Notes under the pieces: generated by a model
Seen by the model: only the letters and a program-made list of their open reading frames with translations
What the model was told of the DNA's origin: nothing
Database searches by the model: none
Sequence record: SRR20825019_428
Strand: one strand, 5' to 3'
Length of the DNA stretch: 58,146 bases
Shown here: piece after piece, positions 21,050 to 39,594 of the stretch
Numbering within the stretch: position 1 is the first letter of the stretch
Layout: the number at the start of each line of letters is the position of its first letter
Position numbers and translations under genes: made by a program

Positions 21050-22696
21050 TTATCCCCGGCCAAGCCGCCGGTCTTCGTCGGCCAGCCCCGGATCCCGATC
21101 CTTAACGTGGCCATAGCCGCCGCCGCCCGGTGTCTTCACGCGAACCCTGTCACCCGCCTTGAGCGGAATATCCTGTTCTTTCGAAAGATGCTCCGGGATG
21201 TATTTCACGCCATCACGCCAGACCTCGACCACATTCGGCGCGCCATCCTCGCCGCCGAGCGCGCCTTGAGGGCCGAAACGTCCATGATCCATCACAAAGC
21301 TTGCCCGGGCCTCACCACGCCGGAGTTCGATTTCATAATCAAGACCGAGGCCGCCACGGTGTTGTCCGGCCCCGCCTGATCCCTCGCGGAGTGCATAGCG
21401 GTGATAAAGCACCGGGAAGTTCTGCTCCATGATCTCGACCGGCGGTGCCTTTGAAATTCCGATGGTCGAACAGCCGTTGGACAGGCCGTCGTGATCGGCA
21501 TTGCCACCATAGCCGCCACCGGAAAGCTGATACATCACGAAGTCCCGGCCTTGTTCCGGATCGTGACCGCCGAGCGCGAAGTTACCGCTGGTACCGGCCG
21601 GAGACGCAGTCACCCGATGCGGTAAGGCTTCAACAAGGGCCGCGAACACGGCTTCCGCAATGCGCTGGCTTACTTCGGCGGCACATCCTGAAACCGGTCT
21701 CGGATAATGGGCGTCCAGAAATGTGCCCTCGGGCCGGATCACCTCGAGAGGCACGAAAGCGCCGGCGCTGATCGGCACTTCGGGAAAGATATGGCGCATG
21801 GCCAGATAGACCGAAGACAGCGTGGTCGCCAGGACGGAATTCATCGGCCCAAGACAAGGCGGACTGGAATCCGAGAAATCGAACCGCAAGTGTCCCGGTG
21901 TCTTTTCGACCGTGAGATTGATCGCCAGTGGCTCATTGACGACACCGTCGCTATCGACCCATGCCGTCGCGCTGTAATTTCCATCAGGGATTTCGTCGAT
22001 CAGGGTGCGCATCTGAGTTTCAGCCCGGACACGCAGTTCGGCGATCGCACCGCGCACCACATCATCGCCATAACGATCCAGCAGTGCGTTCAGTCTCTCC
22101 TCGCCCACAGCGAGCGCGGCCGCCTGCGCCTTGACGTCACCGATCCGCTGATCCGCGACCCGAATGTTCGAACAAATGATGGCGTAGATTTCCCGGTCGA
22201 GGACGCCTTCCTTGAAAAGCCGAACCGGCGGCAGTCGTAACCCCTCCTGCTCCACGGCCGTTGCCGAGGCAGAAAAGCCGCCAGGAACCGCGCCGCCCGT
22301 ATCCGGCCAGTGTCCGGTATTCGACAACCAGCAGAAAATTTCGCCATTCCGGTAAAACGGGCGGGCAAACCGCACATCCATCAGATGCGTGCCGCCGAGA
22401 TAGGGATCGTTGACAATATAGACGTCGTCGGGCTTTGGCGCCGGGGCGGTACCTGCCGCGATCATTTCGATCAGCGTGCGGGTGGAATATTGCATGGTCC
22501 CGACAAAAACCGGCAGACCGCCAGCCCCCTGAGCGATCAGGGAACCATCGTCAGCGGCGTAGATCCCGTCGGAACGGTCATTTGCTTCCGCGATCACCGG
22601 CGAGAAAGCAGCGCGCGAGAAGCTCAGATCCATTTCGTCACAGACTTGCTGCAAGCCGGCCTGGATGACCGAGAGCGTAATGGGGTCGATGCTCAT
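21050..22696 (-). CDS. Hydantoinase B / oxoprolinase family protein
   Basis: IDPITLSVI, FSPVIAEAND, NDPYLGGTHLMD, GHWPDTGGAVPGG, EGLRLPP, TPGGGGYG. Confidence 0.93.
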   Translation of the reverse strand: MSIDPITLSVIQAGLQQVCDEMDLSFSRAAFSPVIAEANDRSDGIYAADDGSLIAQGAGGLPVFVGTMQYSTRTLIEMIAAGTAPAPKPDDVYIVNDPYLGGTHLMDVRFARPFYRNGEIFCWLSNTGHWPDTGGAVPGGFSASATAVEQEGLRLPPVRLFKEGVLDREIYAIICSNIRVADQRIGDVKAQAAALAVGEERLNALLDRYGDDVVRGAIAELRVRAETQMRTLIDEIPDGNYSATAWVDSDGVVNEPLAINLTVEKTPGHLRFDFSDSSPPCLGPMNSVLATTLSSVYLAMRHIFPEVPISAGAFVPLEVIRPEGTFLDAHYPRPVSGCAAEVSQRIAEAVFAALVEALPHRVTASPAGTSGNFALGGHDPEQGRDFVMYQLSGGGYGGNADHDGLSNGCSTIGISKAPPVEIMEQNFPVLYHRYALREGSGGAGQHRGGLGLDYEIELRRGEARASFVMDHGRFGPQGALGGEDGAPNVVEVWRDGVKYIPEHLSKEQDIPLKAGDRVRVKTPGGGGYGHVKDRDPGLADEDRRLGRG

Positions 22697-24753
22697 GATC
22701 CGGCTCCTATATGGATCAGCAGATTGCCGTCCGCCGCTCCTTCAACCCGGTCTCCGGGCGGCACAAGGGTAGTGCAATCCAGTTGTTCGATCACTGCGGG
22801 CCCCGACAGGGATACATCCGCCGGAAGCGTGTCCCGCCGATAAACCGGTGTCTCATGCGCGATTCCGTCAAAGATCACGCTCCGCGTGCCCACAGGCACG
22901 GCTTCGGCTAAACGGCCTGCCGGGTCGATCAGACCAGAGAGATCCACCGGATCGCGCTTGCCGATGACCGAGCAATTGATATTGACGACGACGGCACTGA
23001 TCTCCGCCAGCTCCACCTTGAAGCGAGCCCAATATTCCGTCTCGAACCGGCTTCTCAACTGCTCTCGGCTCGGCGTTCCATCCTCCAGCGGCACGCGAAC
23101 GACATGGCTTTGCCCCTTGAATTGCATTTCCACGCTGAATTCCTTCTGGATGTCGCGAATGGAAATGCTCTCCCGTGCCAGTGCGTCTGTCCCTGCCCGC
23201 ACCTGCTGCTCGAAGATGCCGCAAAGTTGTTCAATATCAAGAAAATCGAGCGGCTGGTTGATGGTTTGGACGAAGTCGTGGCGCAAATCGGCCACGATGC
23301 ATCCCAGGGCATTCGTGATACCGGGACGCGCCGGAATCAGAACCCGCGGTACGCCTAACTCCCGTGCGAGGGCCGCCGCATGCAAAGGCCCGGCTCCACC
23401 AAAGGCGAAGAGCGCGAAATCCCGGGGGTCAGCGCCAAGGGAAAGTGAAACCATACGGATTGCGCCTGCCATCTTGGCGTTGGCGATCCGGATCACCGCT
23501 TCGGCGGCTTCAATACCGTCAACGCCAAGCGGCTCGCCAAGGTCACGGCGGAAAATATCCTCAACCGCCGCGCGGGAGATGCCCCCCTCGACGGAATTCA
23601 GACGTTCGGGATTCAGCCGGCCGAGTAAAAGGTTGGCGTCCGAGATCGTGGGGCGGGAGCCCCCTCGTCCGTAGCAGATAGGACCAGGTTCGGCACCGGC
23701 GCTCTCGGGACCGACTTCAAGCAGGCCCGCTGCATTGACAGAGGCGATCGAGCCGCCGCCCGCACCGACCGTCCGGACATCGACCATCGGGACGTGGATC
23801 GGCATCGCATATTCGATTTCGATCTCGTTGGAGACAGGAGGATTTCCGCCACGGATCAGCGCAACATCAGTAGAGGTGCCGCCCATATCGTAGGTGAGCA
23901 AATTCACCTCGCCCGCGCGCCGTCCCGTATAGGCTGCCGCCATCACGCCCGATGCCGGCCCGGACATCACCGTCTTGGCTGCCGCGCTGGCCACCATCCT
24001 GGAGGAAACCATGCCGCCGTTTCCGTTCATCACCAGCACGTCGCCGGCATATCCCTTATCCGCCAGCTCCTTTCGAAGCCGGGCGATATAGACCTCCAGG
24101 ATCGGCTGCACAGATGCATTTACCGCCGCCGTGACCCCACGCTCGAACTCACGGGTTTCCGACAGCAGGGCATGCCCCATGGTGATGTAGCTGTTTGGCC
24201 AGACCTCGGCCGCGATCTCTGCCGCCCGGCGTTCATGGTCCGGATTGGCATAGGCATGGAGAAAATGGATAACCAGCGCTTCGCATCCGAGCCCGACCAG
24301 AGTCTTCGCGGCCTGACGCACCGCATCTTCGTCGAGCTGTGTGACCACAGCTCCCGAGGCATCCATCCTCTCGGGCACTTCAAGGCGCAGATCGCGCGGA
24401 ATGATTGGCCGGAAAACGCCTTTCATTCCATAAGCCTGAGGTCTGGTACGCCGACCAAGCTCCAGAATGTCCCGGAAGCCGGCAGTCGTGATCAGCCCGG
24501 TCTTCGCCAGTTTGCGCTCAAGGACGGCGTTGGTCGTCGTCGTCGTCCCGTGGACGATCAGATCGACGGCGCTTGGATCGACACCCGCCTCGGCAATGGC
24601 GTTCAGTACGCCAAATGCCTGATTGTCCAGTGTGGTCGCCGTCTTCGCCATCCGGATACTGCCGGTATCCGGATCAAGCATGACGAGATCCGTGAAGGTT
24701 CCGCCGACATCGACGCCGATGATTCCGCCTTTAGCCAAGACCCCGCCCGCCAT
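22693..24753 (-). CDS. Hydantoinase A / oxoprolinase family protein (ATP-binding subunit)
   Basis: GVDVGGTFTD, HGTTTTTNAVLE, SGPASG, DMGGTSTD, GAGGGSIA, GPESAGAEPGP, FGGAGPLH; ATG 24753 preferred over the ORF-track TTG at 24777. Confidence 0.93.
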   Translation of the reverse strand: MAGGVLAKGGIIGVDVGGTFTDLVMLDPDTGSIRMAKTATTLDNQAFGVLNAIAEAGVDPSAVDLIVHGTTTTTNAVLERKLAKTGLITTAGFRDILELGRRTRPQAYGMKGVFRPIIPRDLRLEVPERMDASGAVVTQLDEDAVRQAAKTLVGLGCEALVIHFLHAYANPDHERRAAEIAAEVWPNSYITMGHALLSETREFERGVTAAVNASVQPILEVYIARLRKELADKGYAGDVLVMNGNGGMVSSRMVASAAAKTVMSGPASGVMAAAYTGRRAGEVNLLTYDMGGTSTDVALIRGGNPPVSNEIEIEYAMPIHVPMVDVRTVGAGGGSIASVNAAGLLEVGPESAGAEPGPICYGRGGSRPTISDANLLLGRLNPERLNSVEGGISRAAVEDIFRRDLGEPLGVDGIEAAEAVIRIANAKMAGAIRMVSLSLGADPRDFALFAFGGAGPLHAAALARELGVPRVLIPARPGITNALGCIVADLRHDFVQTINQPLDFLDIEQLCGIFEQQVRAGTDALARESISIRDIQKEFSVEMQFKGQSHVVRVPLEDGTPSREQLRSRFETEYWARFKVELAEISAVVVNINCSVIGKRDPVDLSGLIDPAGRLAEAVPVGTRSVIFDGIAHETPVYRRDTLPADVSLSGPAVIEQLDCTTLVPPGDRVEGAADGNLLIHIGAGS

Positions 24754-24799
24754 AGTTTGTTTCCGCAGCTCGCGCAAGTTTGTTTCCGCAGCTCGCGCA
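24754..24799. repeat. Perfect 23-bp direct tandem duplication
   Basis: AGTTTGTTTCCGCAGCTCGCGCA at 24754-24776 and 24777-24799. Confidence 0.95.
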
Positions 24800-24807
24800 C
24801 CGCAGAT

Positions 24808-24823
24808 TACTTGTATACAAATA
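24808..24823. promoter_or_regulatory. Putative MarR operator, copy 1
   Basis: TACTTGTATACAAATA upstream of hydantoinase A; similar palindromes at 27071, 32220 and 38701. Confidence 0.7.
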
Positions 24824-24842
24824 AAAACGTGGCGCGCGACTT

Positions 24843-25616
24843 TTAGTCAACCTTAATCGAGATCGCGGCCGTGACCGGCGTTCCATCGACGACATAGGCG
24901 CGGTGATCGTTGGTGTTCAGTGTCACCCGGACTTCATGCAGCCCCTGCGGCAAGCCGCCTATATGTGCTTGCGGCTCATAAAGCCGCCCCAGCTTGACAC
25001 CGCCAACATAGATGTGGCCGTGCCCCATGCCCGGCACGTGGTAAAGCCCCGCAAGTTCCTTGGAAAACCGGAAATCCTCGGCATTGACCTGCAGGCGCCA
25101 ACCCTCTCCCTCCGGAGCCACCGAAAGGGAAATCTCGGGTGCCGGCTCACCCTCCCCGACAGCACAAATCTCACCGAGACCGAACAGCCCGACTTCGCTG
25201 GCCGCCCCCTCTTTCGCCGGGTCAGATAGACGGGCTTTGATCGTTATCTTGCCCGCCTTGGCAAAAGTCAGCTCTACGGGCAGCAAGGTGCCGTCGGCCA
25301 TGGGGGACTCGATATCACTCAGACGAATATGCGCCCCGTCCAGAGCAAGCGCGGCCGGGCCGGCCGGGATCGGCAGGCCGGGTGTCTCGATCGGGCTGTA
25401 AAGACTGGCCAGGCCTGCACTGCTGAAGGCCCCGATCAGGCGGTCCGGCTCACCCGTATTCTGGATATTCAGAAAGATTGCGGCATCCTGGTCATTTAAG
25501 GGTTTCGCAACAGCGTCACTGACCAGAAGATGTGTCGCGCTTCCATCTCGCATGGAGCCCCACCACAATCCGCCGGCCATCGCAGCCAAGACCAAAAAAA
25601 TCAGGATGGTTCTCAT
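24843..25616 (-). CDS. Exported protein: degenerate PCuAC-like domain plus His-containing beta domain
   Basis: N-terminal anchor; AAIFLNIQNTGEPDRLIGA...HIRL...VELTFAKAGKITI resembles PCuAC; C-terminal GMGHGHIYVGGVKLGRLY...LNTNDH. Confidence 0.65.
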   Translation of the reverse strand: MRTILIFLVLAAMAGGLWWGSMRDGSATHLLVSDAVAKPLNDQDAAIFLNIQNTGEPDRLIGAFSSAGLASLYSPIETPGLPIPAGPAALALDGAHIRLSDIESPMADGTLLPVELTFAKAGKITIKARLSDPAKEGAASEVGLFGLGEICAVGEGEPAPEISLSVAPEGEGWRLQVNAEDFRFSKELAGLYHVPGMGHGHIYVGGVKLGRLYEPQAHIGGLPQGLHEVRVTLNTNDHRAYVVDGTPVTAAISIKVD

Positions 25617-25643
25617 GACGCCACTCTCACATGGAAATACCCT

Positions 25644-27020
25644 ATGACAGTGCGGAAATTGATTTTTGCGGTCAAGCTGGCGGTCCTCTGGCCGGGAACG
25701 GCATGGGCTCACGCATCCGAGCAGGGATTCGTGCTGCTGCTGCCGACCGGCGTTTATACGGCGTCCGGTGTTGCCGTGGTCGCACTCACCGTGGCCTTGC
25801 TGATCGCCATTCCGGGCCGTTTCATTCTGACACTGTTTCGCGAGCGCAGTTTCGCGGCTCCGGCATCGGAAAATCTTCGGACAATCACCAGCCTCATATC
25901 TTTTCTGGGGATGCTGGCGGCGATCTATATCGGCCTCACCGGACCGCGCGATCCCTTGTCCAACCTGATGCCGCTGATGTTCTGGACTATCGGCTGGATC
26001 GGCTTCGTCAGCCTGACGGGATTGTTAGGAGATCTGTTTTTCTGGCTCAATCCCTGGACCGGCCTTTACCGCCTTCTCGGCCCAATACGGCCGTTGGTTC
26101 ATCTACCTTCCCGGCTTGGCGTCTGGCCGGCTGTACTGCTGTTGATCGGATTCGCTGCCTTTCTGCTTGCGGATATCGCTCCCGACGATCCGGGCCGTCT
26201 GGCCAAGCTGGTGGGGCTTTACTGGCTTGCGATGATGACGGGCCTGGTTCTGTGCGGGCCGAACTGGCTGGGGCAGGTTGAGCTCGGGTCGGTTCTGTCC
26301 GCGCGCTATGCGGGGCTGGCACCGGTACGGACCGGAAATCAGGCGGGTGCCGGTGTCCCCGGCTGGCGTCTGATCGGCCGCAAGCCTGTTCCCGCTGCCG
26401 GGATATTCGCCTTGACCCTGCTCGCCGTCGGCAGCTTCGACGGGATAAACGAAACCTTCTGGTGGCTTGGAGTCATCGGGATCAATCCACTTGAATTCCC
26501 CGGCCGCTCGGCCGTTGTCGCGCCCACGATCCTCGGTCTGTTCGGTGCGGTCATCGTATTACCCATGGTATTTGCCATAACCGTATGGCTGGGCCTGACT
26601 GCGGCCCGGGCAAAAGCAAAATTCACAGACGTGTTCGAACGGCTCGCACTGAGTTTGCTGCCGATCGCGTTTGCCTATCATATCGCCCATTACCTGACCT
26701 CCTTCCTGGTGAACGGCCAATATACCCTTGGCGCCCTGAACGATCCTTTCGCGCGCGGCGCGGATGTCCTGGGGCTTGCGCCGTTTCATGTCACCACAGG
26801 TTTCTTCAACAGTATCGGTACAGTCGAGATCATCTGGCTGTCTCAAGCGGGTGCGGTCGTCCTGGGGCATGTATGGTCCGTACTGCTGGCGCACCGGATG
26901 GCCCTCGATCTGTTTCCGGAGAACCGTCGTGCCGTTCTGGTCACGCTGCCACTCTCTATTTTCATGATTTTGTACACATTTTTAGGATTATGGTTGCTCG
27001 CGGCTCCGAGGGGAGCATGA
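25644..27020 (+). CDS. Conserved multi-pass membrane protein of unknown function
   Basis: Signal-like N-terminus ending AWAHASEQ; about 10-11 hydrophobic segments; LNPW, SLLPIAFAYHIAHY, VLGHVWSVLLAH motifs. Confidence 0.75.
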   Translation: MTVRKLIFAVKLAVLWPGTAWAHASEQGFVLLLPTGVYTASGVAVVALTVALLIAIPGRFILTLFRERSFAAPASENLRTITSLISFLGMLAAIYIGLTGPRDPLSNLMPLMFWTIGWIGFVSLTGLLGDLFFWLNPWTGLYRLLGPIRPLVHLPSRLGVWPAVLLLIGFAAFLLADIAPDDPGRLAKLVGLYWLAMMTGLVLCGPNWLGQVELGSVLSARYAGLAPVRTGNQAGAGVPGWRLIGRKPVPAAGIFALTLLAVGSFDGINETFWWLGVIGINPLEFPGRSAVVAPTILGLFGAVIVLPMVFAITVWLGLTAARAKAKFTDVFERLALSLLPIAFAYHIAHYLTSFLVNGQYTLGALNDPFARGADVLGLAPFHVTTGFFNSIGTVEIIWLSQAGAVVLGHVWSVLLAHRMALDLFPENRRAVLVTLPLSIFMILYTFLGLWLLAAPRGA

Positions 27021-27070
27021 GCGTCATCTCAGATCGACCGCACCTGTCCGGAAGAAACCGCTGGACATGT

Positions 27071-27086
27071 TGCATGTATACAAACA
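27071..27086. promoter_or_regulatory. Putative MarR operator, copy 2
   Basis: TGCATGTATACAAACA upstream of the ABC binding-protein gene. Confidence 0.7.
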
Positions 27087-27149: not shown

Positions 27150-28427
27150 ATGTTTAACAAGTTACCAAGTCGCCGAACTCTCATAAAAGGGGCGGCGGCC
27201 AGCGGCCTTTTGGCGGCTGTTCCTTTGTCTGGCCGATTTGCCCAGGCTCAATCCTCCGCTCCGATCAAGATCGGCTTCCAGCAGCATTCAACGGGAATTG
27301 GCGCTGCCTACGGACGCTGGTACGGACGGACAACCGCTGCCGCGGTCAAGGCGATCAACGATGCCGGCGGGATCAACGGCCGTCCGGTCGAAATTGTCGC
27401 CGAGGATGACGGAACCGATCCCAAGCGTGGGGCGGAAGTGGTCGAGAAGTTTGCCAATCAGCATGGTTGCGACGTGGCGTTCGGAACACTCTTCAGCCAC
27501 GTGGTCTACGGCTCGGCCCCCGCTGCCGGGGAGCTCAAGATCCCCTATTTCGTGGTCTCCGAAGGTCATCACGTGGCCAGCGGCAAGTTGAACCGCTACA
27601 CGCTTCAACCCGGTATCACCGACGTGAAGAGCCAGGTTCAGGCCATGGCACCGTTCATCGGCAAAAATCTTGGCAAGAAGGTCACGATGATCTTCCCGGA
27701 TTTCGCCTTTGGCCACGATCATCGTGATTTCTTTACCTCGGCTATCGAGGCGCAGGGCGGCGAGGTGCTCGAGCACATTGCGATCCCGCCGAGCGAAACG
27801 TCCTTCACCAAGTATTTCCCGCGTATCCCGCGTGAGACAGAGGTGATCTACCATGTCATGGTCGGCCCGGGCGTCCTGACTTTCGTCAAGGAACTGGGAG
27901 AATTTTTCGGCCCGTCCAGGCCTGAAATCTTCGGCTTCATCGACAGCCTGGAAGCTGTCGATCTCTCCTCTCCCGGTCTGGATTTCCTGGAAGGGACTTA
28001 CTTCTGGGAAGGCAATCCACGTTATGCGCAAGCCGATCAGACCAGTTTCGACAAGAACTATCGCACAGCCGTAGGCGTCGACGAGAACGGGGCTTCGGTC
28101 TCCGATCCGAAAGACGTCTCCACTTACGCGCACATGTTCGGATGCTGGGAGACGCTGAATATCATCAAGGCGGGAATGGAATCCTCCGGTTATCAGGGGC
28201 CGTCTGATCGCCAGAAGCTGATTGAAGCCGTCGAAGCGATCACCGACATCCCGGAGAGCGACGCTCATCCGCAAGGCCCAAAACTGTTCAACGGCAAGAC
28301 CCACCAGGTCTTCGGCGTGCAGTACATCTCCCGGGTCGAAAACGGAAAGCTGGTAAAGGTTCACACCACGTCCATCGAGGACACGCTGTATCCGGACGAA
28401 GTCGACTACACGAAGATGTCCTTCTGA
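27150..28427 (+). CDS. Liv/HAAT-family ABC substrate-binding protein, Tat signal
   Basis: SRRTLIKG twin-arginine signal; IKIG...INDAGGINGRPVEIVAEDDGTDP. Confidence 0.9.
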   Translation: MFNKLPSRRTLIKGAAASGLLAAVPLSGRFAQAQSSAPIKIGFQQHSTGIGAAYGRWYGRTTAAAVKAINDAGGINGRPVEIVAEDDGTDPKRGAEVVEKFANQHGCDVAFGTLFSHVVYGSAPAAGELKIPYFVVSEGHHVASGKLNRYTLQPGITDVKSQVQAMAPFIGKNLGKKVTMIFPDFAFGHDHRDFFTSAIEAQGGEVLEHIAIPPSETSFTKYFPRIPRETEVIYHVMVGPGVLTFVKELGEFFGPSRPEIFGFIDSLEAVDLSSPGLDFLEGTYFWEGNPRYAQADQTSFDKNYRTAVGVDENGASVSDPKDVSTYAHMFGCWETLNIIKAGMESSGYQGPSDRQKLIEAVEAITDIPESDAHPQGPKLFNGKTHQVFGVQYISRVENGKLVKVHTTSIEDTLYPDEVDYTKMSF

Positions 28428-28443
28428 TCACTTTTTAGGAGCG

Positions 28444-28464
28444 CCGGAGCCCAGTGGGCTCCGG
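28444..28464 (+). other. Intercistronic stem-loop after the binding-protein gene
   Basis: CCGGAGCCC-AGT-GGGCTCCGG; such hairpins often stabilise the SBP part of the mRNA. Confidence 0.55.
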
Positions 28465-28483
28465 TTCGCTATTCCAGAGAAAA

Positions 28484-29410
28484 ATGGATTTTGGTCCTCA
28501 CCTTCTGCTCGCCTCGCTAGAGGGCGCTGTCGGCGCTGCCGTGCTCGCATTGACCGCGCTAGGCCTCTCGCTGGTGTTCGGCGTCATGCGGGTCGTCAAT
28601 GTCGCGCATGGCGAATTCTTCATGTTGGGCGCCGTTGCCACGTGGTTTGTAGCCTCGATTATTCCGGGACACCCGGCCATCGCCTTTCTGGCGGCCCTGG
28701 TGATCGCTCCCCTGTTTGCCGCCGCGCTGGCCATTGCCGCAGACCATCTGGTCCTGAAGCATGTCGATTACGATCCGGAAGCGACGATCGTCGCCACCAT
28801 CGGCATCCTCTACATTCTCCAGCAAGCAGTGCTGATGACATACGGGCCGGAAGCGCGCCCCGTCGAGCCGCCCTTCAACAGCCGCATCGCCCTGCCCTGG
28901 TTCGAATTTGGCGAAGCTGGTCTGCAACTTTATTACCCATGGGGCTTTGGCACGACGAGCTACAAGCTGTTCGTCATCGGTGCCGCCATGTTCATTCTTG
29001 TCGGGTTCTGGCTGTTGTTTTCCCGCACGCGCCTTGGACTGGTGCTGCGTGCGACCCAGCTTGACCGGGAAACCGCACAGGCTTTCGGTATCTCAGTTCA
29101 GCGGGTCTATTCGCTTGTCTTTGGCCTCGGCGCAGGCCTCGCCGCCCTGGCAGCTGTCCTGATCGTGCCGATCCAGCAGGCGCATTATCTGATGGGCGGC
29201 GACCCGCTCCTGCTGAGCTTTATCGTTGTCATCATCGGCGGCCTCGGCTCGATCCGCGGCACTGTCGTCGCCGCGATCATCATCGGCATGTCCGACGGCA
29301 TCATCTCGGTGTTTTTCAGCCCGACGCTCGCCAAGATCATCGCCACCATGCTGGTCGCGCTGATTCTGGTCTTCCGTCCGCAAGGCCTTTACGGGAAGAA
29401 ACCGTCATGA
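28484..29410 (+). CDS. Branched-chain amino acid-type ABC permease (LivH-like)
   Basis: ALGLSLVFGVMRVVNVAHGEF; VIIGGLGSIRG; RPQGL. Confidence 0.92.
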   Translation: MDFGPHLLLASLEGAVGAAVLALTALGLSLVFGVMRVVNVAHGEFFMLGAVATWFVASIIPGHPAIAFLAALVIAPLFAAALAIAADHLVLKHVDYDPEATIVATIGILYILQQAVLMTYGPEARPVEPPFNSRIALPWFEFGEAGLQLYYPWGFGTTSYKLFVIGAAMFILVGFWLLFSRTRLGLVLRATQLDRETAQAFGISVQRVYSLVFGLGAGLAALAAVLIVPIQQAHYLMGGDPLLLSFIVVIIGGLGSIRGTVVAAIIIGMSDGIISVFFSPTLAKIIATMLVALILVFRPQGLYGKKPS

Positions 29411-31748: not shown

Positions 31749-32180
31749 TCAGACGAGTTTTGCCAGGATGGCTTCCAGTATTTCCGTCTCCTCGGCCGTA
31801 AGCGGCTCAAGCGTTTCTTCCCTGGCCCGAAGGGCTTGAGCATGCGCCGCCTCGAAGGCCGCCTGCCCTTCCTCGGTCAACTCCACGATACGGAGGCGCT
31901 GATCGTTCTGGTCCGGACGCAAAGTCAGAAAGTTCTTGGCCATAAGCCGCTCGACGACCCCCTTGATCGTTGCCGAGTCCATCGCCGTCATGCGCCCCAG
32001 TTTGTTCTGGGACAGAGGACCAAGCTCATAGAGCCGGGCAAGGGTCGCAAACTGTGTCGGCGTCATGCCGTCAACATGCCGACTGAAGATCGCGATATGG
32101 CGCTGGTTGGCCCTGCGAAGGTTAAATCCGACCTGACTTGCAAGCCGGTAGGTGTCGGCGATGTTGCTGCTTTTTCCCAT
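31749..32180 (-). CDS. MarR family regulator, NicR/BpsR-like
   Basis: YRLASQVGFNLRRANQRHIAIF...SQNKLGRMTAMDSATIKGVVERL...DQRLRIVELT; divergent from the Mo-hydroxylase genes. Confidence 0.88.
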   Translation of the reverse strand: MGKSSNIADTYRLASQVGFNLRRANQRHIAIFSRHVDGMTPTQFATLARLYELGPLSQNKLGRMTAMDSATIKGVVERLMAKNFLTLRPDQNDQRLRIVELTEEGQAAFEAAHAQALRAREETLEPLTAEETEILEAILAKLV

Positions 32181-32219
32181 CCGCTTCTATTGACAGGTTG
32201 GCGGGGTTGCCGCAACATC

Positions 32220-32235
32220 CACTTGTATACAAACA
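32220..32235. promoter_or_regulatory. Putative MarR operator, copy 3
   Basis: CACTTGTATACAAACA in the short divergent region between marR and the FAD subunit; TTGACA at 32190-32195. Confidence 0.75.
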
Positions 32236-32248
32236 AGTTTGTGTGTTC

Positions 32249-33106
32249 ATGATGACAGCCACGATGACCTATCTACGACCTGATATGTTAACGTCTGCCT
32301 TGGACGCACTGGCATCGAGACCGCTGACAGTAGCAGCGGGGTGCACTGACCTTTACCCGTCCACCGAACGTAAATCCCTTCCCTACGATGTGCTGGATAT
32401 CACCGGAATCGAGAGCCTCTCCGGAATCCGGCGGGATCAGGACGGCTTGAGGATCGGCGGAACGACAACCTGGGCCGAGATCGCGGAAGCGGATCTGCCG
32501 CCTGCCCTACGCGCCTTGCAACTGGCTGCACGGGAAGTTGGATCAAGGCAGATTCAGAACCGGGGAACAATCGCCGGCAACCTCTGCAATGCCTCACCCG
32601 CGGCGGACGGTGTGCCGCCTCTTCTGGTGCTCGATGCAGAGATCGAGCTGAGTGCATCAAGCGGTGTGCGCATTCTGCCTCTTGCGGACTATCTGACCGG
32701 CCCGCGCAAAACACAGCGGCGACCGGACGAAATCCTGACTGCGGTGAAGATCCCGGCCAAGGCTCTTACCGGAAGCAGTCATTTTCTGAAACTGGGCGCC
32801 CGCACATATCTTGTGATTTCGATCTCTATGGTAGCGGCACGTGTCGTGATCGAAGACGGCATCGTGACTGAAGCCGCTCTGTCGGTTGGCGCTTGCGGGC
32901 CCGTTGCACAACGGCTGGATGCTGGGGAACGCGCTCTGGTCGGCCAGCCACTGAACCCGGATGTGATCACAGACCAGCTCGTCGCGGAGGCGCTGAGCCC
33001 CATCGATGATATCCGCGCGGACGCTGATTATAGAAACACAAGCGCTGCCGAGTTGCTTCGCCGCACGTTGCGCGCACTACAAGCCGGTCCGGGAGACATT
33101 GGATGA
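32249..33106 (+). CDS. Molybdenum hydroxylase FAD-binding subunit (CoxM/XdhB/NdhF-like)
   Basis: AAGCTDL; QIQNRGTIAGNLCNASPAAD; SPIDDIRADADYR. Confidence 0.92.
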   Translation: MMTATMTYLRPDMLTSALDALASRPLTVAAGCTDLYPSTERKSLPYDVLDITGIESLSGIRRDQDGLRIGGTTTWAEIAEADLPPALRALQLAAREVGSRQIQNRGTIAGNLCNASPAADGVPPLLVLDAEIELSASSGVRILPLADYLTGPRKTQRRPDEILTAVKIPAKALTGSSHFLKLGARTYLVISISMVAARVVIEDGIVTEAALSVGACGPVAQRLDAGERALVGQPLNPDVITDQLVAEALSPIDDIRADADYRNTSAAELLRRTLRALQAGPGDIG

Positions 33107-35838
33107 ATGTGCATTCAAGCCGAATGATGCTGACTGTTGCCGGTGAACAGCATGCCATCCTGTCCGAGCCGGGACGTCGGCTGTCCGAGGTACTGCGGGA
33201 TGACCTCGGTCTGAAGAGCGTGAAGATCGGCTGCGATGCCGGCGATTGCGGCGCTTGCACCGTACTGATCGATGGCAGGCAGCATTGCGCGTGCCTCACC
33301 CCCGTTGCCCAGGTTGCCGGACGGCGGGTCGAGACGGTGGAAACCGCCGATCCTGCTCTGATGGGGCAGCTGCAAAAGGCGTTTCTGGCGCACGGTGCGG
33401 CGCAATGCGGCATTTGTACACCGGGCGTTCTGATGGCTTCCATGGAGTTGTTGCACAACAACCAAAATCCCGATATCGCCGAAATTGAGGACACGCTCGC
33501 CGGTGTACTTTGCCGCTGTACCGGCTACAGAAAGATCATATCCGCCATTATGGCTGTCGGATCGTCGATAGAAGAGACAGTCGCCCCCGTTGCCGGGAAA
33601 GCGGTCGGCCACCCGGTGCCGAGACTGGACGGTGCCCGGAAGGTCGACGGCACGGAAATTTTTGGCGCCGACTATGCCCCCGAAGGATCACTTGCGGTTC
33701 GAGCCGTTCGCTCTCCGCACCATCATGCCCGTTTCGAACTCGGCGACATCGTAAAATGGCAGATGGATCATCCCGGTGTCTCCGCCGTAGTGACAGCGGC
33801 GGATATTGAGGGTGAAAACCGGTTCGGTGTTATCCCCCCGCTCGCAGATCAACCGGCCATCGCCGAGGAGATCGCACGCTATCGTGGCGAGCCGGTGGCC
33901 CTGATCGTCGGCGACCCGGACCTGGTCGAGGCGATGGATCTCGAAGGCTTCCCGGTCACATGGACCGCGCTGCCCCATAGCCTGACGCAAGCCGAGGGCG
34001 GAGTGGCTGGTGCCCCCCAATTGCATGAGACCCGCTCGGAGAACACGCTGATCCGGGGCCGCGTTGCCAGTGGAGATCCGGACCAGGCCATGCAATCGGC
34101 GCCGCATGTCGCATCGGGGAGTTTCGAAACTTCCTATGTCGAGCACGCCTATATAGAACCGGAAGCCGGTGCCGCCTGGCTCGATGGCGATACATTGGTG
34201 ATTCAGGCCTGCACGCAAGCGCCTGTGATGGACCGGGACGATACCGCCAAGGTTCTGGGTCTGCCGGTGGAGCGGGTCAGGATCATCCCATCGGCTGCCG
34301 GTGGCGGGTTCGGCTCGAAGCTCGACATCACGGTTCAGCCGCTCCTTGGGCTGGCTGTTCTGAAGACGGGGCGGCCCTGCCGCATGGTTTTCAGCCGGTC
34401 GGAATCCATGCGGGCAAGCACGAAGCGCCACCCCGGTACGCTGGAAGCATCGATTGGCGCGGACGAGGATGGCCGGATCACGTCCATGATCCTGCATGGT
34501 GATTTCAATACCGGCGCCTATGCCAGCTGGGGCCCGACCGTGGCGACCCGTGTCCCCGTGCATGCTTCCGGCCCCTACCTCACCCCGAACTATCGGGCGA
34601 CCAGCCGGGCCATTCATACCAACGGGCCAACGGCAGGGGCGTTCCGGGGCTTCGGCGTGCCGCAGGCGGCCATCTGCCAGGAAGTTCTGTATGACGATCT
34701 GGCCGGGAAATGCGGGATTGATCGGCTGGAATTCCGGCGCCTGAACGCCCTTCGGGATGGCGATGCGACGCCCTCCGGCCAGGTGCTGCAGGCCGTCGGG
34801 ATTGAGGAATGCCTCGACGCGCTCAAGCCCCACTGGGACAGAGCGCTCGCAGAAGCTGCTGCGCATAATGAGGTGTCACCGGTACTGAAACGCGGCATCG
34901 GTGTCGCCTCCTGCTGGTATGGATGCGGGAACACGGCCCTGCCGAACCCGTCTACGATCCGTATCGGCATCACGTCCGGGGGCGCGCTCAAGCTGCACCA
35001 GGGCGCGACCGATATCGGACAGGGCTCGAACACCGTGATCACGCAGATCGCGGCGGATGCGATGGGCGTACCGCTCAGCTTGTTCGAGCTGATCGGTCCG
35101 GACACGGCGCTGACGCCGGATTGCGGCAAGACTTCGGCATCGCGTCAGACCTATATTTCCGGCAAGGCAGCGGAACGCTCGGGCAACGCATTGCGCGACA
35201 CCATCCTGCGCCTGACCAATTTGCCGGGAACGGCGCGTATCGAACTCGGCTCCGGCAAAATCATCGTCAGCCATGGCGATGAACGGCGCGAGATCGATCT
35301 GAACGCGCTTCCGGCAAACCCGGACGGCTATGTCCTGATGGCGGAAGAGACGTACGATCCGCCGACAACCGCACTGGACGAGGACGGTCAGGGCACGCCT
35401 TACGCAGTCTACGGTTACGGCGCGCAAATGGCCGAAGTTGAAGTCGACATGCTTCTCGGCAGGACCAGGGTCATTCGCATCACCGCGGCACATGACCTCG
35501 GGCGGGTCATCAATCCGTTGCTTGCCGAGGGTCAGGTCGAAGGCGGCATCGCGCAAGGACTTGGGCTTGCCCTGATGGAAGAGTTCATCCCGGGCCGCAC
35601 GGAGAACCTGCATGATTATCTGATCCCGACGATCGGAGACATGCCGGAAGTGCAATCGATCTTCATCGAGAAACACGACCCGGAAGGGCCTATGGGGGCC
35701 AAGGGGCTGGGTGAGCATGTGCTGATCCCGACCGCCCCCGCGATCCTGAATGCAATCAGGCACGCATCCGGTGCCCGGATCACAAAAGTCCCCGCCCTGC
35801 CCCATCGTGTGCTCGCGGCGATAAAGGCCTCGCAATGA
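33103..35838 (+). CDS. Molybdenum hydroxylase: fused 2x[2Fe-2S] and molybdopterin-binding subunit (nicotinate dehydrogenase-like)
   Basis: CDAGDCGAC, QCGICTPG, LCRCTGY; Moco motifs GGGFGSK, AFRGFG, DIGQGS, GQVEGG, KGLGE. Confidence 0.92.
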   Translation: MNVHSSRMMLTVAGEQHAILSEPGRRLSEVLRDDLGLKSVKIGCDAGDCGACTVLIDGRQHCACLTPVAQVAGRRVETVETADPALMGQLQKAFLAHGAAQCGICTPGVLMASMELLHNNQNPDIAEIEDTLAGVLCRCTGYRKIISAIMAVGSSIEETVAPVAGKAVGHPVPRLDGARKVDGTEIFGADYAPEGSLAVRAVRSPHHHARFELGDIVKWQMDHPGVSAVVTAADIEGENRFGVIPPLADQPAIAEEIARYRGEPVALIVGDPDLVEAMDLEGFPVTWTALPHSLTQAEGGVAGAPQLHETRSENTLIRGRVASGDPDQAMQSAPHVASGSFETSYVEHAYIEPEAGAAWLDGDTLVIQACTQAPVMDRDDTAKVLGLPVERVRIIPSAAGGGFGSKLDITVQPLLGLAVLKTGRPCRMVFSRSESMRASTKRHPGTLEASIGADEDGRITSMILHGDFNTGAYASWGPTVATRVPVHASGPYLTPNYRATSRAIHTNGPTAGAFRGFGVPQAAICQEVLYDDLAGKCGIDRLEFRRLNALRDGDATPSGQVLQAVGIEECLDALKPHWDRALAEAAAHNEVSPVLKRGIGVASCWYGCGNTALPNPSTIRIGITSGGALKLHQGATDIGQGSNTVITQIAADAMGVPLSLFELIGPDTALTPDCGKTSASRQTYISGKAAERSGNALRDTILRLTNLPGTARIELGSGKIIVSHGDERREIDLNALPANPDGYVLMAEETYDPPTTALDEDGQGTPYAVYGYGAQMAEVEVDMLLGRTRVIRITAAHDLGRVINPLLAEGQVEGGIAQGLGLALMEEFIPGRTENLHDYLIPTIGDMPEVQSIFIEKHDPEGPMGAKGLGEHVLIPTAPAILNAIRHASGARITKVPALPHRVLAAIKASQ

Positions 35839-37268
35839 GCCGCCCCGAAAAAATCCGCTGCGATGCCTGCCCGGTGATGTGTTTCATCGCCGAGGGCCGG
35901 GCTGGAGCCTGTGACCGTTATGCCAACGAGAATGGCAAGATCATTCGCTGCGATCCGCTGACGATCCTGGATAAACGTCTGGCCAAAGGCGATGAGATCA
36001 AGCCGTTTCTCGCCGCCGAATGGGACGGGCACACGGTTTCGGGGAACACGGTGGTTGTCTCCGCTGTCGGTGCGGGCACGACCTATCCGGATTTCAAACC
36101 GGCCCCTTTCATCGTCAGCCGGGAGATCGATGGTGCGGATTTCGTCACCGTCGTCACCGAAGCCATTTTCTCCTATTGCGGCGTCAAGGTGAAGATCGAC
36201 ACCGATCGGCACCTTGGCCACGAGGCGGCGATCGTCCGGGCGGAAGGTGAGCCGGTCGGTCATGTCATGACCTCGGAATACGGCTCGCAAATGCTGTCGC
36301 TCGGTGGCGTCGACCACCTGACCGGGGGCAGCAAGGCCGAAGGCCGCAAGACCTGCGCCGCACTTCTGAGCCTGTGCAACAAGGAGCCGGTCGAACTGAC
36401 CGTGGATGGCGGCTCAACGGTAGTCGTGCAGGCCGGAAAGCCCCCCATCGTGGACGGAACGCCCGAAGAGCGGATGCGCGTCGGCTGCGGATCCGCCGCC
36501 ATCGGCATGTTTGCCTCCCAATGGAAGGGCCTCGTGGACGATGTGGTGGTAGTAGACGATCACATTACCGGCGTTGTCTCGGAGCATCAGGCCGGCAAGG
36601 TCATAGACTGGCCGGATACGGGCATCAGCATTCTCGGGCATCGCTCGACGCCGGGCCGATATTTCCGCGTCGCTGAACCCGGCCTTGGCTGGGGCGGCAC
36701 CAATATCGAGGATCCGCTGAGTATTCTCGGCCCCTGGAAGGAAAAGAAAGGTGCGCGGCCTGGTCTGTCCATCCTCATGGTCTCTACCACCGGTGAGCAT
36801 TCGGGCTATTACGTGCTCGATGATGATTTGCAACCGGTCGCACAACAAATGCCTCAGGAGCTTAGGCGGTCCGTGGAGCTAATTTCTGAGAATTGTGAGC
36901 CCGCACTTTGCACCGTCCTGTTCATGGGCGGTGCGGGCGGCTCGCTCCGCTCGGGGGTTACCCGCAACCCCATCAATCTCACCCGGTCGGTTCAGGGCCG
37001 TAAGACGCAGGTCACGGTTGGCGGTGCCCCGGTCTATGTCTGGCCGGGCGGCGGCATCACCATTATGGCCGATGTCATGCAGACACCCGACGGCGCGTTC
37101 GGCTCCGTTCCCACTCCAGCGCTGGTCGCGCCACTGGAATTTACCGTCAGCCGCGAGGAATACCGGCAGCTCGGCGGGCATGACGATGCCGTCCGCTCTC
37201 TGGAAGACGTTCTTGCACTGGGCGGAGAATATGGCTCTGACAGCCGTATACTCGGAACTGGCGGATGA
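35835..37268 (+). CDS. 6-hydroxynicotinate reductase-like Fe-S flavoprotein
   Basis: CDACPVMC...GACDRY; GAGTTYPDFKPAPFIV, FSYCGVKVKIDTDR, RVGCGSA, WPGGGIT recalled from the Hnr family; context with Mo-hydroxylase. Confidence 0.78.
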   Translation: MSRPEKIRCDACPVMCFIAEGRAGACDRYANENGKIIRCDPLTILDKRLAKGDEIKPFLAAEWDGHTVSGNTVVVSAVGAGTTYPDFKPAPFIVSREIDGADFVTVVTEAIFSYCGVKVKIDTDRHLGHEAAIVRAEGEPVGHVMTSEYGSQMLSLGGVDHLTGGSKAEGRKTCAALLSLCNKEPVELTVDGGSTVVVQAGKPPIVDGTPEERMRVGCGSAAIGMFASQWKGLVDDVVVVDDHITGVVSEHQAGKVIDWPDTGISILGHRSTPGRYFRVAEPGLGWGGTNIEDPLSILGPWKEKKGARPGLSILMVSTTGEHSGYYVLDDDLQPVAQQMPQELRRSVELISENCEPALCTVLFMGGAGGSLRSGVTRNPINLTRSVQGRKTQVTVGGAPVYVWPGGGITIMADVMQTPDGAFGSVPTPALVAPLEFTVSREEYRQLGGHDDAVRSLEDVLALGGEYGSDSRILGTGG

Positions 37269-38110
37269 GTACCGCGCCGCAAGCAGCCATGCTACCGGAC
37301 GGTCAACGGCTGCATCTGCATCACGGTCCGATCGACCTGATTATCCAGGCTTGGGGAGTTGAGCGCCAAACCTGTTATGAGCAGGCCATCGAACGCTTCC
37401 AAACCATCCTGACGGGACTGGTGTCGGAATTGCCCGCCTTGCGCTCACCTGTCTCGCAGAAATCTGCTTTCTCCGACCCGGTTGCGCGCCGTATGGGCGC
37501 CACGGTTGTCGGATACGAGGGCTTTTTCATAACGCCCATGGCCGCCGTCGCCGGAGCGGTCGCGGATGAGATTCTGGCCGCGATGATCTCTGGCTGCAAT
37601 GTATCAAAGGCCTATGTGAATAATGGCGGCGACATCGCCTTTCATCTGTCGGGTGACGAGAACACCGTCGTTGCCGCACCGGGCGGAGCCATCCATATCG
37701 CCGCCACCGATCCGGTGCGCGGGATCGCTACTTCCGGCTGGCGCGGCCGCAGTCATTCGCTCGGGATAGCGGACGCTGTCACGGTCGCGGCCCGGTCGGC
37801 TGCCGATGCCGATGCCGCCGCAACCCTGATCGCCAACGCGGTGGACCTGCCCGGTCACCCCGCCATCGAACGGGTGCCGGCACAGGACATCACGCCTGAC
37901 AGCGACCTTGGCGACCGAAAGGTCACTGTCTCCGTCGGCGCATTGTCGGGCGCCGAGATAACCTTGGCGCTTCAGTCTGGCGAAGCGCTGGCCCAGCGTC
38001 TCGTCTCGGAAGAAAAGATCATCCAGGCATCGCTTATGCTTGAGGGTGATGTCAGGGTCGTTACAGCCAATACAGAAATCACACCCCAAGGAACGCTCGC
38101 TCATGCCTGA
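37265..38110 (+). CDS. UPF0280 family (ApbE-like) protein
   Basis: LHHGPIDL, TPMAAVAGAVAD, NNGGD, IATSG, ADADAAAT; no signal peptide. Confidence 0.85.
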   Translation: MSTAPQAAMLPDGQRLHLHHGPIDLIIQAWGVERQTCYEQAIERFQTILTGLVSELPALRSPVSQKSAFSDPVARRMGATVVGYEGFFITPMAAVAGAVADEILAAMISGCNVSKAYVNNGGDIAFHLSGDENTVVAAPGGAIHIAATDPVRGIATSGWRGRSHSLGIADAVTVAARSAADADAAATLIANAVDLPGHPAIERVPAQDITPDSDLGDRKVTVSVGALSGAEITLALQSGEALAQRLVSEEKIIQASLMLEGDVRVVTANTEITPQGTLAHA

Positions 38111-38684
38111 TTTTTCCGTCCGCAAGATGCAGATGATCATAGAGGAAGTCCGGCATGATGGTGGCCCTGCCCCTGAAACACCGAGGCGACTGGGCGCTGT
38201 TCTGGCCTGCATCCACAATCCGTTTGCCGGCCGTTATGTTGCCGATCTCCAGCCTGCGATGGGGGACTTGAAGCCTCTCGGCCTGGAAATGAGCGAACGC
38301 CTGATCGCTGCGCTCGGTGGCGCGGACCGTATCGACGGTTACGGCAAGGCGATGCTGGTCGGCGAGAATGGAGAACTCGAGCATGGCGCGCTCTGGCATG
38401 TACCCGGCGGTTATGCGATGCGCCAGCTCCTGGGTGATTCCAACGCGATCGTGCCATCCAACATGAAACGTGGCGGTGTCGGCTCGACATTGGACATCCC
38501 GCTCGGCCACATAAATGCGGCCTATGTACGGAGCCATTTCGACGGTTTCGAAGTCCGCTTGCCGGATGGACCGCGCGCGGACGAAATGGTCCTGGCACTG
38601 GCTATGTCGTGCGGCGGCCGCGTCCATAGCCGCATGGGCGGCCTGGAAGCTCGGGACGTGAAAGGCGAAGACGGTCTCAGATAG
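38103..38684 (+). CDS. Amino acid synthesis family protein (DUF1185)
   Basis: NPFAGRYV, YGKAMLVGENGELEHG, YVRSHFD, PRADE. Confidence 0.85.
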   Translation: MPDFSVRKMQMIIEEVRHDGGPAPETPRRLGAVLACIHNPFAGRYVADLQPAMGDLKPLGLEMSERLIAALGGADRIDGYGKAMLVGENGELEHGALWHVPGGYAMRQLLGDSNAIVPSNMKRGGVGSTLDIPLGHINAAYVRSHFDGFEVRLPDGPRADEMVLALAMSCGGRVHSRMGGLEARDVKGEDGLR

Positions 38685-38700
38685 GCCTGCACCCAAATAT

Positions 38701-38716
38701 TGCTTGTGTACAAGCA
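38701..38716. promoter_or_regulatory. Putative MarR operator, copy 4
   Basis: TGCTTGTGTACAAGCA, near-perfect palindrome upstream of fpr. Confidence 0.7.
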
Positions 38717-38763
38717 ATCTCTGTCACGGCAGAATATGAGCTGGATTTCGATGGAGATTTGTC

Positions 38764-39594
38764 ATGTCGGACGCGATGCAGGAAGCAGACGGTAACGAAA
38801 CGACCCATCAGGGTTTTGCGATCCCGGCAGGGGTTTATGCCGAGCCGGTCCTTTCCGTGAAACATTATACGGACCGTCTGTTCTCATTCCGGATAGCACG
38901 CCCTGCCGCCTTCCGCTTCCGGTCCGGAGAATTCGTGATGATCGGTCTTCCCAATGCCGAAAAGCCGGTCTTCCGCGCCTATTCCATCGCCTCGCCATCC
39001 TGGGACGAAGAGCTGGAATTCTATTCCATCAAGGTTCCGGACGGGCCGCTGACGGAACATCTGCAAAAGATCCAGCCGGGCGACACGGTGCTGCTGCGCA
39101 AGAAGTCTGTCGGTACCCTAGTCAACGATGCCCTGATCCCGGGCAAGCGGCTTTGGCTGTTCTCGACGGGAACGGGCATCGCACCCTTCGTCAGCGTCAT
39201 CCGCGATCCCGAAACCTACGACAAGTTCGAACAGGTCATCCTGTGTCACACCTGCCGTGAAGTGGACGAACTGACATATGGTTACGAGATCGTCGAAGCG
39301 ACCAAATCGGATCCGTTGATTGGCGAAGAAGCGACCGCGAAACTTGTCCATTACGCAACGACGACACGGCAAGACAGCCCGCATATGGGCCGGATCACCG
39401 ATCTCATTCAGAGCGGCAAACTGTTCTCGGATCTAGGCCTGCCTCCCCTCGATCCCAAGGCGGATCGCGGAATGATCTGCGGCTCCATGGATTTTCTGAA
39501 AGACACCAAACGGATCCTGGAAGAAGCCGGTCTCTCGGAAGGCGCAAACTCGAATCCTGGCGAATTCGTCGTGGAACGTGCTTTTGTCGACTGA
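38764..39594 (+). CDS. fpr: Ferredoxin--NADP+ reductase
   Basis: FRSGEFVMIGL, RAYSIAS, GTGIAPF, MICGS, C-terminal VERAFVD. Confidence 0.93.
   Translation: MSDAMQEADGNETTHQGFAIPAGVYAEPVLSVKHYTDRLFSFRIARPAAFRFRSGEFVMIGLPNAEKPVFRAYSIASPSWDEELEFYSIKVPDGPLTEHLQKIQPGDTVLLRKKSVGTLVNDALIPGKRLWLFSTGTGIAPFVSVIRDPETYDKFEQVILCHTCREVDELTYGYEIVEATKSDPLIGEEATAKLVHYATTTRQDSPHMGRITDLIQSGKLFSDLGLPPLDPKADRGMICGSMDFLKDTKRILEEAGLSEGANSNPGEFVVERAFVD

Follow-up and report, generated by a model that had tools for sequence, protein, structure and literature searches.

A HyuAB pair as the proposed ring opener in a probable nicotinate catabolism cluster of marine-type Alphaproteobacteria

Introduction

In the upper route of nicotinate (vitamin B3) breakdown in Eubacterium barkeri, the hydroxylase NdhFSLM converts nicotinate to 6-hydroxynicotinate, 6-hydroxynicotinate reductase (Hnr) yields 1,4,5,6-tetrahydro-6-oxonicotinate (THON), and enamidase (structure PDB 2VUN) opens the ring. 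The hydroxylase of this organism is encoded by four genes, its Hnr carries an N-terminal bis-[4Fe-4S] ferredoxin domain, and steps after enamidase depend on B12. Enzymes of the HyuA/HyuB family are otherwise known for acting on 5-oxoproline, hydantoins and caprolactam. Here we analyze a cluster at positions 21,050 to 39,594 of a 58,146-nucleotide stretch of DNA from record SRR20825019_428 (the whole stretch is called the window below). The cluster is of a marine-type alphaproteobacterial kind and probably encodes a MarR-controlled, hydroxylate-then-reduce route of nicotinate catabolism in which a HyuAB pair replaces enamidase as the ring opener. As we propose for the window, the chemistry as far as THON would be that of E. 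barkeri, and the window's Hnr homologue has the invariant four-Cys motif. The window differs in having two hydroxylase genes instead of four and an Hnr lacking the ferredoxin domain, and it contains neither enamidase nor the B12-dependent steps.

A closer relative is the enamidase-type cluster reported from Azorhizobium caulinodans ORS571, Bradyrhizobium japonicum USDA110, Rhodopseudomonas palustris HaA2 and Bradyrhizobiaceae SG-6C (PMC3511419). On the account given there, that cluster comprises the first three steps, including enamidase, together with an ATP-binding cassette (ABC) transporter and a pair of conserved proteins of unassigned function, and nicotinate is degraded via THON. Measured against this account, the window shares the importer, UPF0280 and DUF1185, whereas it lacks both enamidase and a companion DUF1185 paralogue and contains HyuAB. 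The locus is best read as a known pathway in variant form and not as a new type of system.

Results

HyuAB and enamidase orthologues are mutually exclusive in Hnr-positive genomes

Three protein queries, namely Hnr (E ≤1e-30), HyuB (E ≤1e-120) and enamidase (E ≤1e-20), were run against 401 genomes sampled evenly from the class. The enamidase query (L086:13378-14586) was taken from an alphaproteobacterial hnr locus and matched PDB 2VUN, titled 'ENAMIDASE', with E = 7e-109; a second enamidase matched with 4.5e-111. Hnr was detected in 64 of the 401 genomes at 59-98% identity. Matches to HyuB were present in 66 genomes, 42 of them at 63% identity or more, and matches to enamidase in 31, with 26 at 68% or more and the rest at 43% or less. 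Within the Hnr-positive genomes both distributions are sharply divided: HyuB matches fall at 65-99% identity in 39 genomes and elsewhere reach no more than 45% or are missing, and enamidase matches fall at 68-100% in 25 genomes and elsewhere reach no more than 43% or are missing. The 64 genomes accordingly comprise 39 with a HyuB orthologue and 25 with an enamidase orthologue, with none carrying both and none carrying neither. An earlier note on this DNA, made from the sequence alone, had put forward HyuAB as the opener of the reduced pyridone ring and had suggested, as a check, comparing genomes with hnr to see whether enamidase and hyuAB exclude each other; the exclusion is clean, with no overlap (39 + 25 = 64).

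The window itself conforms to this pattern. The earlier note saw no amidohydrolase (enamidase) gene in the block, which is borne out by a tblastn search of the whole 58-kb window with the verified enamidase (best E = 0.32). The nearest of the genomes available for comparison, G001, shares 23% of sampled words with the window, has a marker completeness of 100% in 210 contigs and shows the same arrangement, with an Hnr 98% identical and a hyuAB stretch 94% identical in DNA. No enamidase was found in G001, where the best match reached E = 4.4e-4 over 65 residues.

To place the two types on a phylogeny, a maximum-likelihood tree of 61 Hnr sequences was built, leaving out the partial rows from G051, G374, G040 and G284. 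The HyuAB and enamidase types interleave on this tree, with at least 10 label changes, four of which are forced by branches with Shimodaira-Hasegawa-like approximate likelihood-ratio (SH-aLRT) support of at least 95. Shuffled labels required 18.7 changes on average, and none of 500 shuffles went as low as 10. The HyuAB type is spread over 24 family labels and the enamidase type over 15, and both types are represented in three families (f51, f80 and f169); among the well-supported sister pairs (SH-aLRT ≥95) of opposite type, that of G170 (HyuAB) and G310 (enamidase) is the most notable. The distribution of the two ring openers therefore reflects repeated switching and not one old split. The strict complementarity, the repeated switching on the Hnr tree and a conserved operator described below together strongly support the proposal that HyuAB opens the ring in place of enamidase.

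Exceptions outside the 64 Hnr-positive genomes were also observed. In G143 (L154, G143:C26 9169-15109) and G293 (L153, G293:C30 5623-11623), in which no Hnr was found, a HyuAB-like pair 59-63% identical to that of the window stands beside a different molybdenum (Mo)-hydroxylase, 25-27% identical to NdhSL; these loci may represent another heterocycle pathway with the same kind of lactamase. In G101, where no Hnr was found, an enamidase orthologue (72%) at G101:C8:31988-33172 has an internal TAG, and the enamidase-linked DUF1185 paralogue persists on another contig, so that this enamidase looks like a decaying remnant.

Organization of the cluster

Genes were called from a listing of open reading frames (ORFs) combined with Pfam and NCBIfam scans of the window proteins. 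All the genes named in the earlier note (Mo-hydroxylase, Hnr, UPF0280, DUF1185, fpr, importer, marR and HyuAB) were recovered by these scans together with the names of relatives. The genes of the proposed pathway and its regulator are as follows, with Moco denoting the molybdenum cofactor and FAD flavin adenine dinucleotide.

21050-22696, minus strand: hyuB, Hydantoinase_B (PF02538, 1.3e-158)
22693-24777, minus strand: hyuA, with Hydant_A_N, Hydantoinase_A and Hydant_A_C (PF05378, PF01968, PF19278)
31749-32180, minus strand: marR (PF01047), divergent from ndhF
32249-33106 (ORF 32138-33106), plus strand: ndhF-like FAD subunit of the Mo-hydroxylase (PF00941, PF03450)
33103-35838, plus strand: fused [2Fe-2S] and Moco subunit of the Mo-hydroxylase (PF01799, PF01315, PF02738, PF20256)
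35835-37268, plus strand: hnr, 477 aa, 6-hydroxynicotinate reductase homologue by the names of its relatives, with no Pfam or NCBIfam model
37265-38110, plus strand: UPF0280 (NF003322, 349.7 bits against a cut-off of 290)
38103-38684 (ORF 38040-38684), plus strand: AA_synth/DUF1185 of the 'first copy' type (PF06684, 7e-67)
38764-39594, plus strand: Fpr-like ferredoxin-NADP+ reductase (PF00970, PF00175)

The likely start of the FAD subunit is the ATG at 32249, just after an operator, and that of AA_synth/DUF1185 is the ATG at 38103, which overlaps the UPF0280 stop. Successive stops and starts from the FAD subunit through the Moco subunit and hnr to UPF0280 overlap by 4 nucleotides each, and UPF0280 and DUF1185 by 8 nucleotides; because of these overlaps, the five plus-strand genes at 32249-38684 look like one translationally coupled operon. 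The stop of hyuA likewise overlaps the start of hyuB by 4 nucleotides, which argues for translational coupling of this pair.

Between hyuA and marR lie the importer and two further ORFs, both absent from the gene list of the earlier note.

24843-25712, minus strand: PCuAC-like ORF, a weak match (35.7 bits), between hyuA and the membrane-protein gene
25641-27020, plus strand: multi-pass membrane protein, 459 aa, of no family
27150-31735, plus strand: five-gene ABC importer of the Liv/Urt type (PF13458, PF02653 twice, PF00005 twice)
27150-28427, plus strand: importer substrate-binding protein
28454-29410 and 29407-30351, plus strand: importer permeases
30339-31046 and 31040-31735, plus strand: importer ATPases

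Among the related loci that were fetched, the PCuAC-like ORF was matched only in G001. A Pfam scan relaxed to E ≤1 gave no match for Hnr, UPF0280, the membrane protein or ORF 39881-40513. Contigs from four runs, two of which could only be guessed to be RNA, were short, low in depth and scattered over hyuB, hyuA, the binding-protein gene and hnr. The cluster is flanked by unrelated housekeeping and envelope genes. On the hyuB side, a 13-bp hairpin, strong and rich in GC, precedes a T run (window 20674-20703) between hyuB and ORF 20033-20680, which has no family; this hairpin is likely the boundary of the cluster.

Linkage of hyuAB to hnr

Gene neighborhoods were compared in 80 named contigs, limited to those whose Hnr is at least 70% identical to that of the window. 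In 21 of these loci, hyuA/B genes of 63-84% identity lie within 10 kb of hnr; enamidase does so in none. In the class sample, hyuB fell inside the fetched stretch (≤20 kb) in 17 of the 39 HyuAB-type loci. At least three gene orders were seen: some loci have the pair beside marR upstream of ndhF, others have it downstream in divergent orientation to fpr, and in others it follows the ABC genes. The window has it on the far side of the importer.

A shared operator

Five operator-like sites were located in the window.

24811-24820: operator palindrome TTGTATACAA, upstream of hyuA
26970-26979: further operator-like site, inside the 3' end of the membrane-protein ORF
27074-27083: operator-like site ATGTATACAA, upstream of the binding-protein gene
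32223-32232: operator palindrome TTGTATACAA, in the marR/ndhF intergenic region
38704-38713: operator-like palindrome TTGTGTACAA, upstream of fpr

The core TGTATACA occurs three times in the window against 0.09 expected, and none of 100 shuffles reached three copies. With at most one mismatch, TTGTRTACAA matches at all five sites (24811, 26970, 27074, 32223 and 38704), giving 9 strand-matches where 1.4 are expected. Four of the five sites are intergenic, preceding hyuA, the binding-protein gene, marR/ndhF and fpr. The claim of the earlier note that the units share one operator motif is therefore sound, since TTGTATACAA or a one-base variant precedes hyuAB, the importer, marR/ndhF and fpr.

A survey of 144 related loci (2.54 Mb) was made with promoter windows defined as -300 to +30 of the ndhF, marR, hyuA, fpr, binding-protein and enamidase (ena) gene starts. 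Although these windows make up only 3.8% of the sequence, they contain 50 of the 61 operator sites. Expressed as loci with a site over loci with the gene, the counts were 28/118 for ndhF, 19/92 for marR, 13/19 for fpr, 12/39 for hyuA, 5/43 for the binding protein and 0/13 for ena. The site in the marR/ndhF intergenic region is present in the window and in 19 marR-bearing related loci. Sites at hyuA and fpr come from Mesorhizobium-, Chelativorans- and Aminobacter-like contigs, where the two genes are divergent neighbors; in the Mesorhizobium-like loci they have the operator in common. Conservation of the operator before hyuA in other genera indicates that hyuAB and the hydroxylase/Hnr operon share a control element well beyond the genus of the window.

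As expected of a MarR-type regulon, the predicted operator sites form a palindrome at the regulated promoters, that of marR included, and MarR is presumed to be a repressor acting at it. A scan for the sigma-70 consensus returned nothing at the operator sites (3 matches against 5.8 expected).

Relationship of HyuAB to known lactam hydrolases

The window pair has the full Hydantoinase A and B domain architecture of caprolactamase, N-methylhydantoinase and 5-oxoprolinase, and the coupled hyuA/hyuB genes match the two-gene arrangement of caprolactamase. The closest structures to HyuA are N-methylhydantoinase (7HK5, 1e-118) and caprolactamase (6YRA_A, 5e-110), and HyuB matches PDB 6YRA_B with 5e-74, such that HyuAB is nearer to lactam and hydantoin hydrolases (7HK5, 6YRA) than to acetone carboxylases. 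Against the NCBIfam caprolactamase equivalogs, HyuA and HyuB scored 492.5 and 293.9 bits where the cut-offs are 1000, caprolactamase beta being the best model for HyuB. HyuAB is therefore a relative, and not an orthologue, of CapA/CapB. Unlike the known HyuA/HyuB hydrolases, it belongs to a separate orthologue group tied to Hnr, and its proposed substrate is a cyclic enamide and not a saturated lactam. By its family, HyuAB would be an ATP-dependent lactam hydrolase, and we propose THON as the lactam that it opens. G001 carries an additional, paralogous pair (HyuB 44%, HyuA 45% identical to those of the window).

Hydroxylase, Hnr and electron supply

The Mo-hydroxylase next to hnr has the domains of the xanthine dehydrogenase family (PF00941 and PF03450; PF01799, PF02738 and PF20256) and reaches no NCBIfam equivalog cut-off. 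It is presumed to be a nicotinate 6-hydroxylase.

No Pfam or NCBIfam model and no solved relative was found for Hnr (35835-37268). It nonetheless has at least 8000 close relatives in the protein collection, many of them named '6-hydroxynicotinate reductase' by NCBI, and 1233 matches among representatives at 50% identity. In an alignment of 17 proteins, C9, C12, C16 and C26 are invariant (17/17) and constitute a conserved Cys-cluster core. An N-terminal extension with two ferredoxin-type CxxCxxCxxxCP-like motifs is present in 12 of the 17 and is missing from the window protein, which is a short form without the N-terminal bis-[4Fe-4S] ferredoxin domain; full-length homologues with the extension are 31-41% identical to it in the alignment (34-43% by phmmer). 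The absence of this extension makes a separate electron supply plausible, and the operator-linked Fpr fits such a role. We therefore suggest that Fpr may supply electrons to Hnr; the Fpr-like protein scored 135 bits against NF008178, under the cut-off of 390. Separately, the complete genome G040 matches Hnr as two adjacent pieces (G040:C1:2969823-2971219; query residues 7-232 and 229-468), with a HyuB orthologue 13 kb away, and its Hnr looks frameshifted or split.

Importer and membrane protein

The Liv/Urt-type importer is presumed to take up nicotinate. Its genes are kept beside ndh-hnr in related loci, and the corresponding importer appears in PMC3511419, in its description of the enamidase-type cluster, as a presumed ABC transporter of nicotinate. 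The membrane protein at 25641-27020 has no Pfam or NCBIfam match, and a protein atlas returned unnamed clusters plus a single automatic name, 'Fenitrothion hydrolase', which we treat as a lead only. Homologues 36-68% identical to it adjoin the binding-protein gene, just upstream, in many related loci of both types, and it is possibly an accessory of the importer.

DUF1185/AA_synth and UPF0280

In loci of the enamidase type, AA_synth is usually present as two genes in tandem. With the second copy as a query (L086:12331-12915) against the 401 genomes, orthologues 69-100% identical were found in 26 genomes, every one of which (26/26) also carries the enamidase orthologue; the next best match to the second copy was 58%, in G170. 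At 69% identity or more, the second copy occurs in no HyuAB-type genome. It is adjacent to ena, or split from it by marR, in the 13 loci holding both, among which L094 has a Rieske oxygenase gene plus marR between them. The AA_synth of the window is of the first-copy type and is 48% identical to the second copy. Because the second copy tracks enamidase, the exchanged unit seems to be Ena plus the second AA_synth on one side and HyuA plus HyuB on the other.

On this basis ring opening may be viewed as a swappable two-gene cassette. Tentatively, and as an idea that we hold to be somewhat less probable than its negation, HyuAB would be an ATP-dependent 'THON lactamase' that makes the opening irreversible, and DUF1185 a partner either in the step from the enamide to 2-formylglutarate or in the decarboxylation that follows. 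The solved relatives of DUF1185, PDB 3BYQ and 2QTP, are both titled 'uncharacterized'.

UPF0280 adjoins hnr in 37 of 39 HyuAB-type and 21 of 25 enamidase-type loci. Its sole solved relative is a 'hypothetical protein' (PDB 2O34, 2e-5), and an hhalign comparison with an ApbE profile of three sequences gave a weak match (probability 50%, E = 1.6e-4 over 111 columns). PF02424 (ApbE) has no match in the whole genomes G001 and G265, both of which contain Hnr and UPF0280. The Hnr of E. barkeri reportedly contains a covalently bound flavin. UPF0280 could conceivably be an ApbE-like flavin transferase that matures Hnr, a weak suggestion at this level of similarity.

Of the 64 hnr loci in the sample, nine, six of the enamidase type and three of the HyuAB type, have a Rieske/VanA-type oxygenase gene after upf0280 or after the AA_synth genes (for example L088:11703-12833, L085:11638-12678, L094:13120-14178 and L098:6051-7247).

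Proposed substrate and pathway

A PncA-like gene, encoding an isochorismatase of the nicotinamidase/pyrazinamidase type, is present in 36 of the 80 loci (e.g., L006:5158-5784) and is absent from the window's cluster. One copy scored 221.7 bits against the NCBIfam nicotinamidase cut-off of 174 (NF008623). Since PncA-like genes are neighbors and the enamidase-type cluster is tied to nicotinate via THON in the account of PMC3511419, nicotinate is the likely substrate of the HyuAB-type cluster as well. Vitamin B6 catabolism had also been considered and was dropped, as its known route uses different enzymes.

In the pathway that we propose, the ABC importer would take up the substrate and the two-gene Mo-hydroxylase would convert it to 6-hydroxynicotinate. 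The short-form Hnr, fed by Fpr and ferredoxin, would then reduce 6-hydroxynicotinate to the cyclic enamide THON. Finally, HyuA/HyuB would open the THON ring with ATP to give 2-(aminomethylene)glutarate, and from it 2-formylglutarate and ammonia. The substrate, the use of ATP, the product and the roles of UPF0280, Fpr and DUF1185 are all inferred.

Discussion

The reading in which HyuAB takes the place of enamidase in nicotinate catabolism has to be set against several observations that weigh against it. With respect to the enzyme, HyuAB lies so far under the caprolactamase cut-offs that its substrate is unreadable from family membership, and enamidase needs no ATP, which leaves unexplained why an ATP-driven enzyme should replace it. 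In terms of regulation and linkage, the strict motif is found upstream of hyuA in only the 12 of 39 loci given above, and in several HyuAB-type genomes hyuB is 54 kb to 1.4 Mb from hnr or on another contig; linkage is therefore frequent but not obligatory. The genome counts call for caution as well. The identity cut-offs between orthologues and paralogues were themselves taken from the two-peaked distributions seen in the data, and whereas the gaps are wide within Hnr-positive genomes, outside them HyuB shows only a small gap (G143 at 63%, G010 at 58%). The sampled genomes are kin, so the counts overstate independence. HyuB orthologues occur in three genomes without a detected Hnr (G248, G143 and G293), although in G248 an upf0280-aasynth-marR-hyuA-hyuB run continues into the contig end, and because that contig ends inside the cluster, the G248 Hnr was probably lost to assembly. 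For the genome to which the window belongs, the absence of an enamidase elsewhere is judged by proxy alone, through G001. Finally, the searchable full text, outside of which lie most subscription journals and supplements, yielded no publication that connects an enzyme of the HyuAB/oxoprolinase type with nicotinate or THON; in PMC4809877, hydantoinase and nicotinate appear only in an unrelated gene table. The description of the pathway as 'undescribed' in the earlier note consequently holds in part: the swap is unreported in the literature that could be searched, but the basic cluster without it had already been described, as the account in PMC3511419 makes clear.

Three other explanations of these data merit consideration. 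HyuAB could be an ordinary 5-oxoprolinase or hydantoinase that is merely nearby, as the generic nature of its Pfam family and the two unrelated-looking genes separating it from the importer in the window would allow. This is very improbable in light of the operator common to hyuAB and the other units, the recurrence of hyuAB-hnr linkage in different gene orders, the complementarity with enamidase and the presence in G001 of a distinct paralogous pair (HyuB 44%, HyuA 45% identical). The pair might instead belong to the regulon and act at another step, for instance on a lactam formed as a by-product or on an intermediate further along the route, with an unrecognised hydrolase opening THON. Such a division of labor draws on the fact that the swap involves two genes per side (Ena and the DUF1185 paralogue against HyuA and HyuB), so that a one-for-one functional match is unproven, and on the existence of cluster proteins without assigned function, namely UPF0280, DUF1185 and the membrane protein. 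Nonetheless, among the 80 loci no further hydrolase family comes up repeatedly, and action at the same step is the simplest account of how strictly HyuAB and enamidase complement each other (39 and 25 of 64), which renders this explanation quite unlikely.

The chemistry could also be as proposed and the substrate a different one, with HyuAB opening the reduced pyridone that corresponds to another pyridine carboxylate or N-heterocycle. The Mo-hydroxylase reaching no equivalog cut-off, the substrates of Hnr and the transporter being predicted only, the HyuAB-like pairs (59-63%) beside an unrelated Mo-hydroxylase in G143 and G293, and the Rieske/VanA oxygenase in nine related loci all leave room for it. 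Against this, Hnr is 59-75% identical across the 63 other Hnr-positive genomes, those of the enamidase type included; enamidase-type clusters are tied to nicotinate breakdown via THON in the account of PMC3511419; and 36 of the 80 loci carry the nicotinamidase-type gene that passes its NCBIfam cut-off. A different substrate is for these reasons unlikely, if the least improbable of the three. Taken together, the observations are most consistent with nicotinate as the substrate and with HyuAB as the enzyme that probably opens THON where enamidase is missing.

If this is correct, a cyclic enamide formed in the breakdown of vitamin B3 would be a natural substrate of a class new to the HyuAB family. 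The annotation of the cluster would be corrected in about one-sixth of the sampled genomes (64/401), with HyuAB as the commoner ring opener (39 against 25). The pair would also offer a clean case of repeated non-orthologous displacement between an ATP-driven and an ATP-independent enzyme. A first functional handle on DUF1185 would be gained too, its second paralogue accompanying enamidase in all 26 of the 26 genomes. With respect to the physiology of these bacteria, an irreversible HyuAB ring opening would suit the scavenging of trace vitamin B3.

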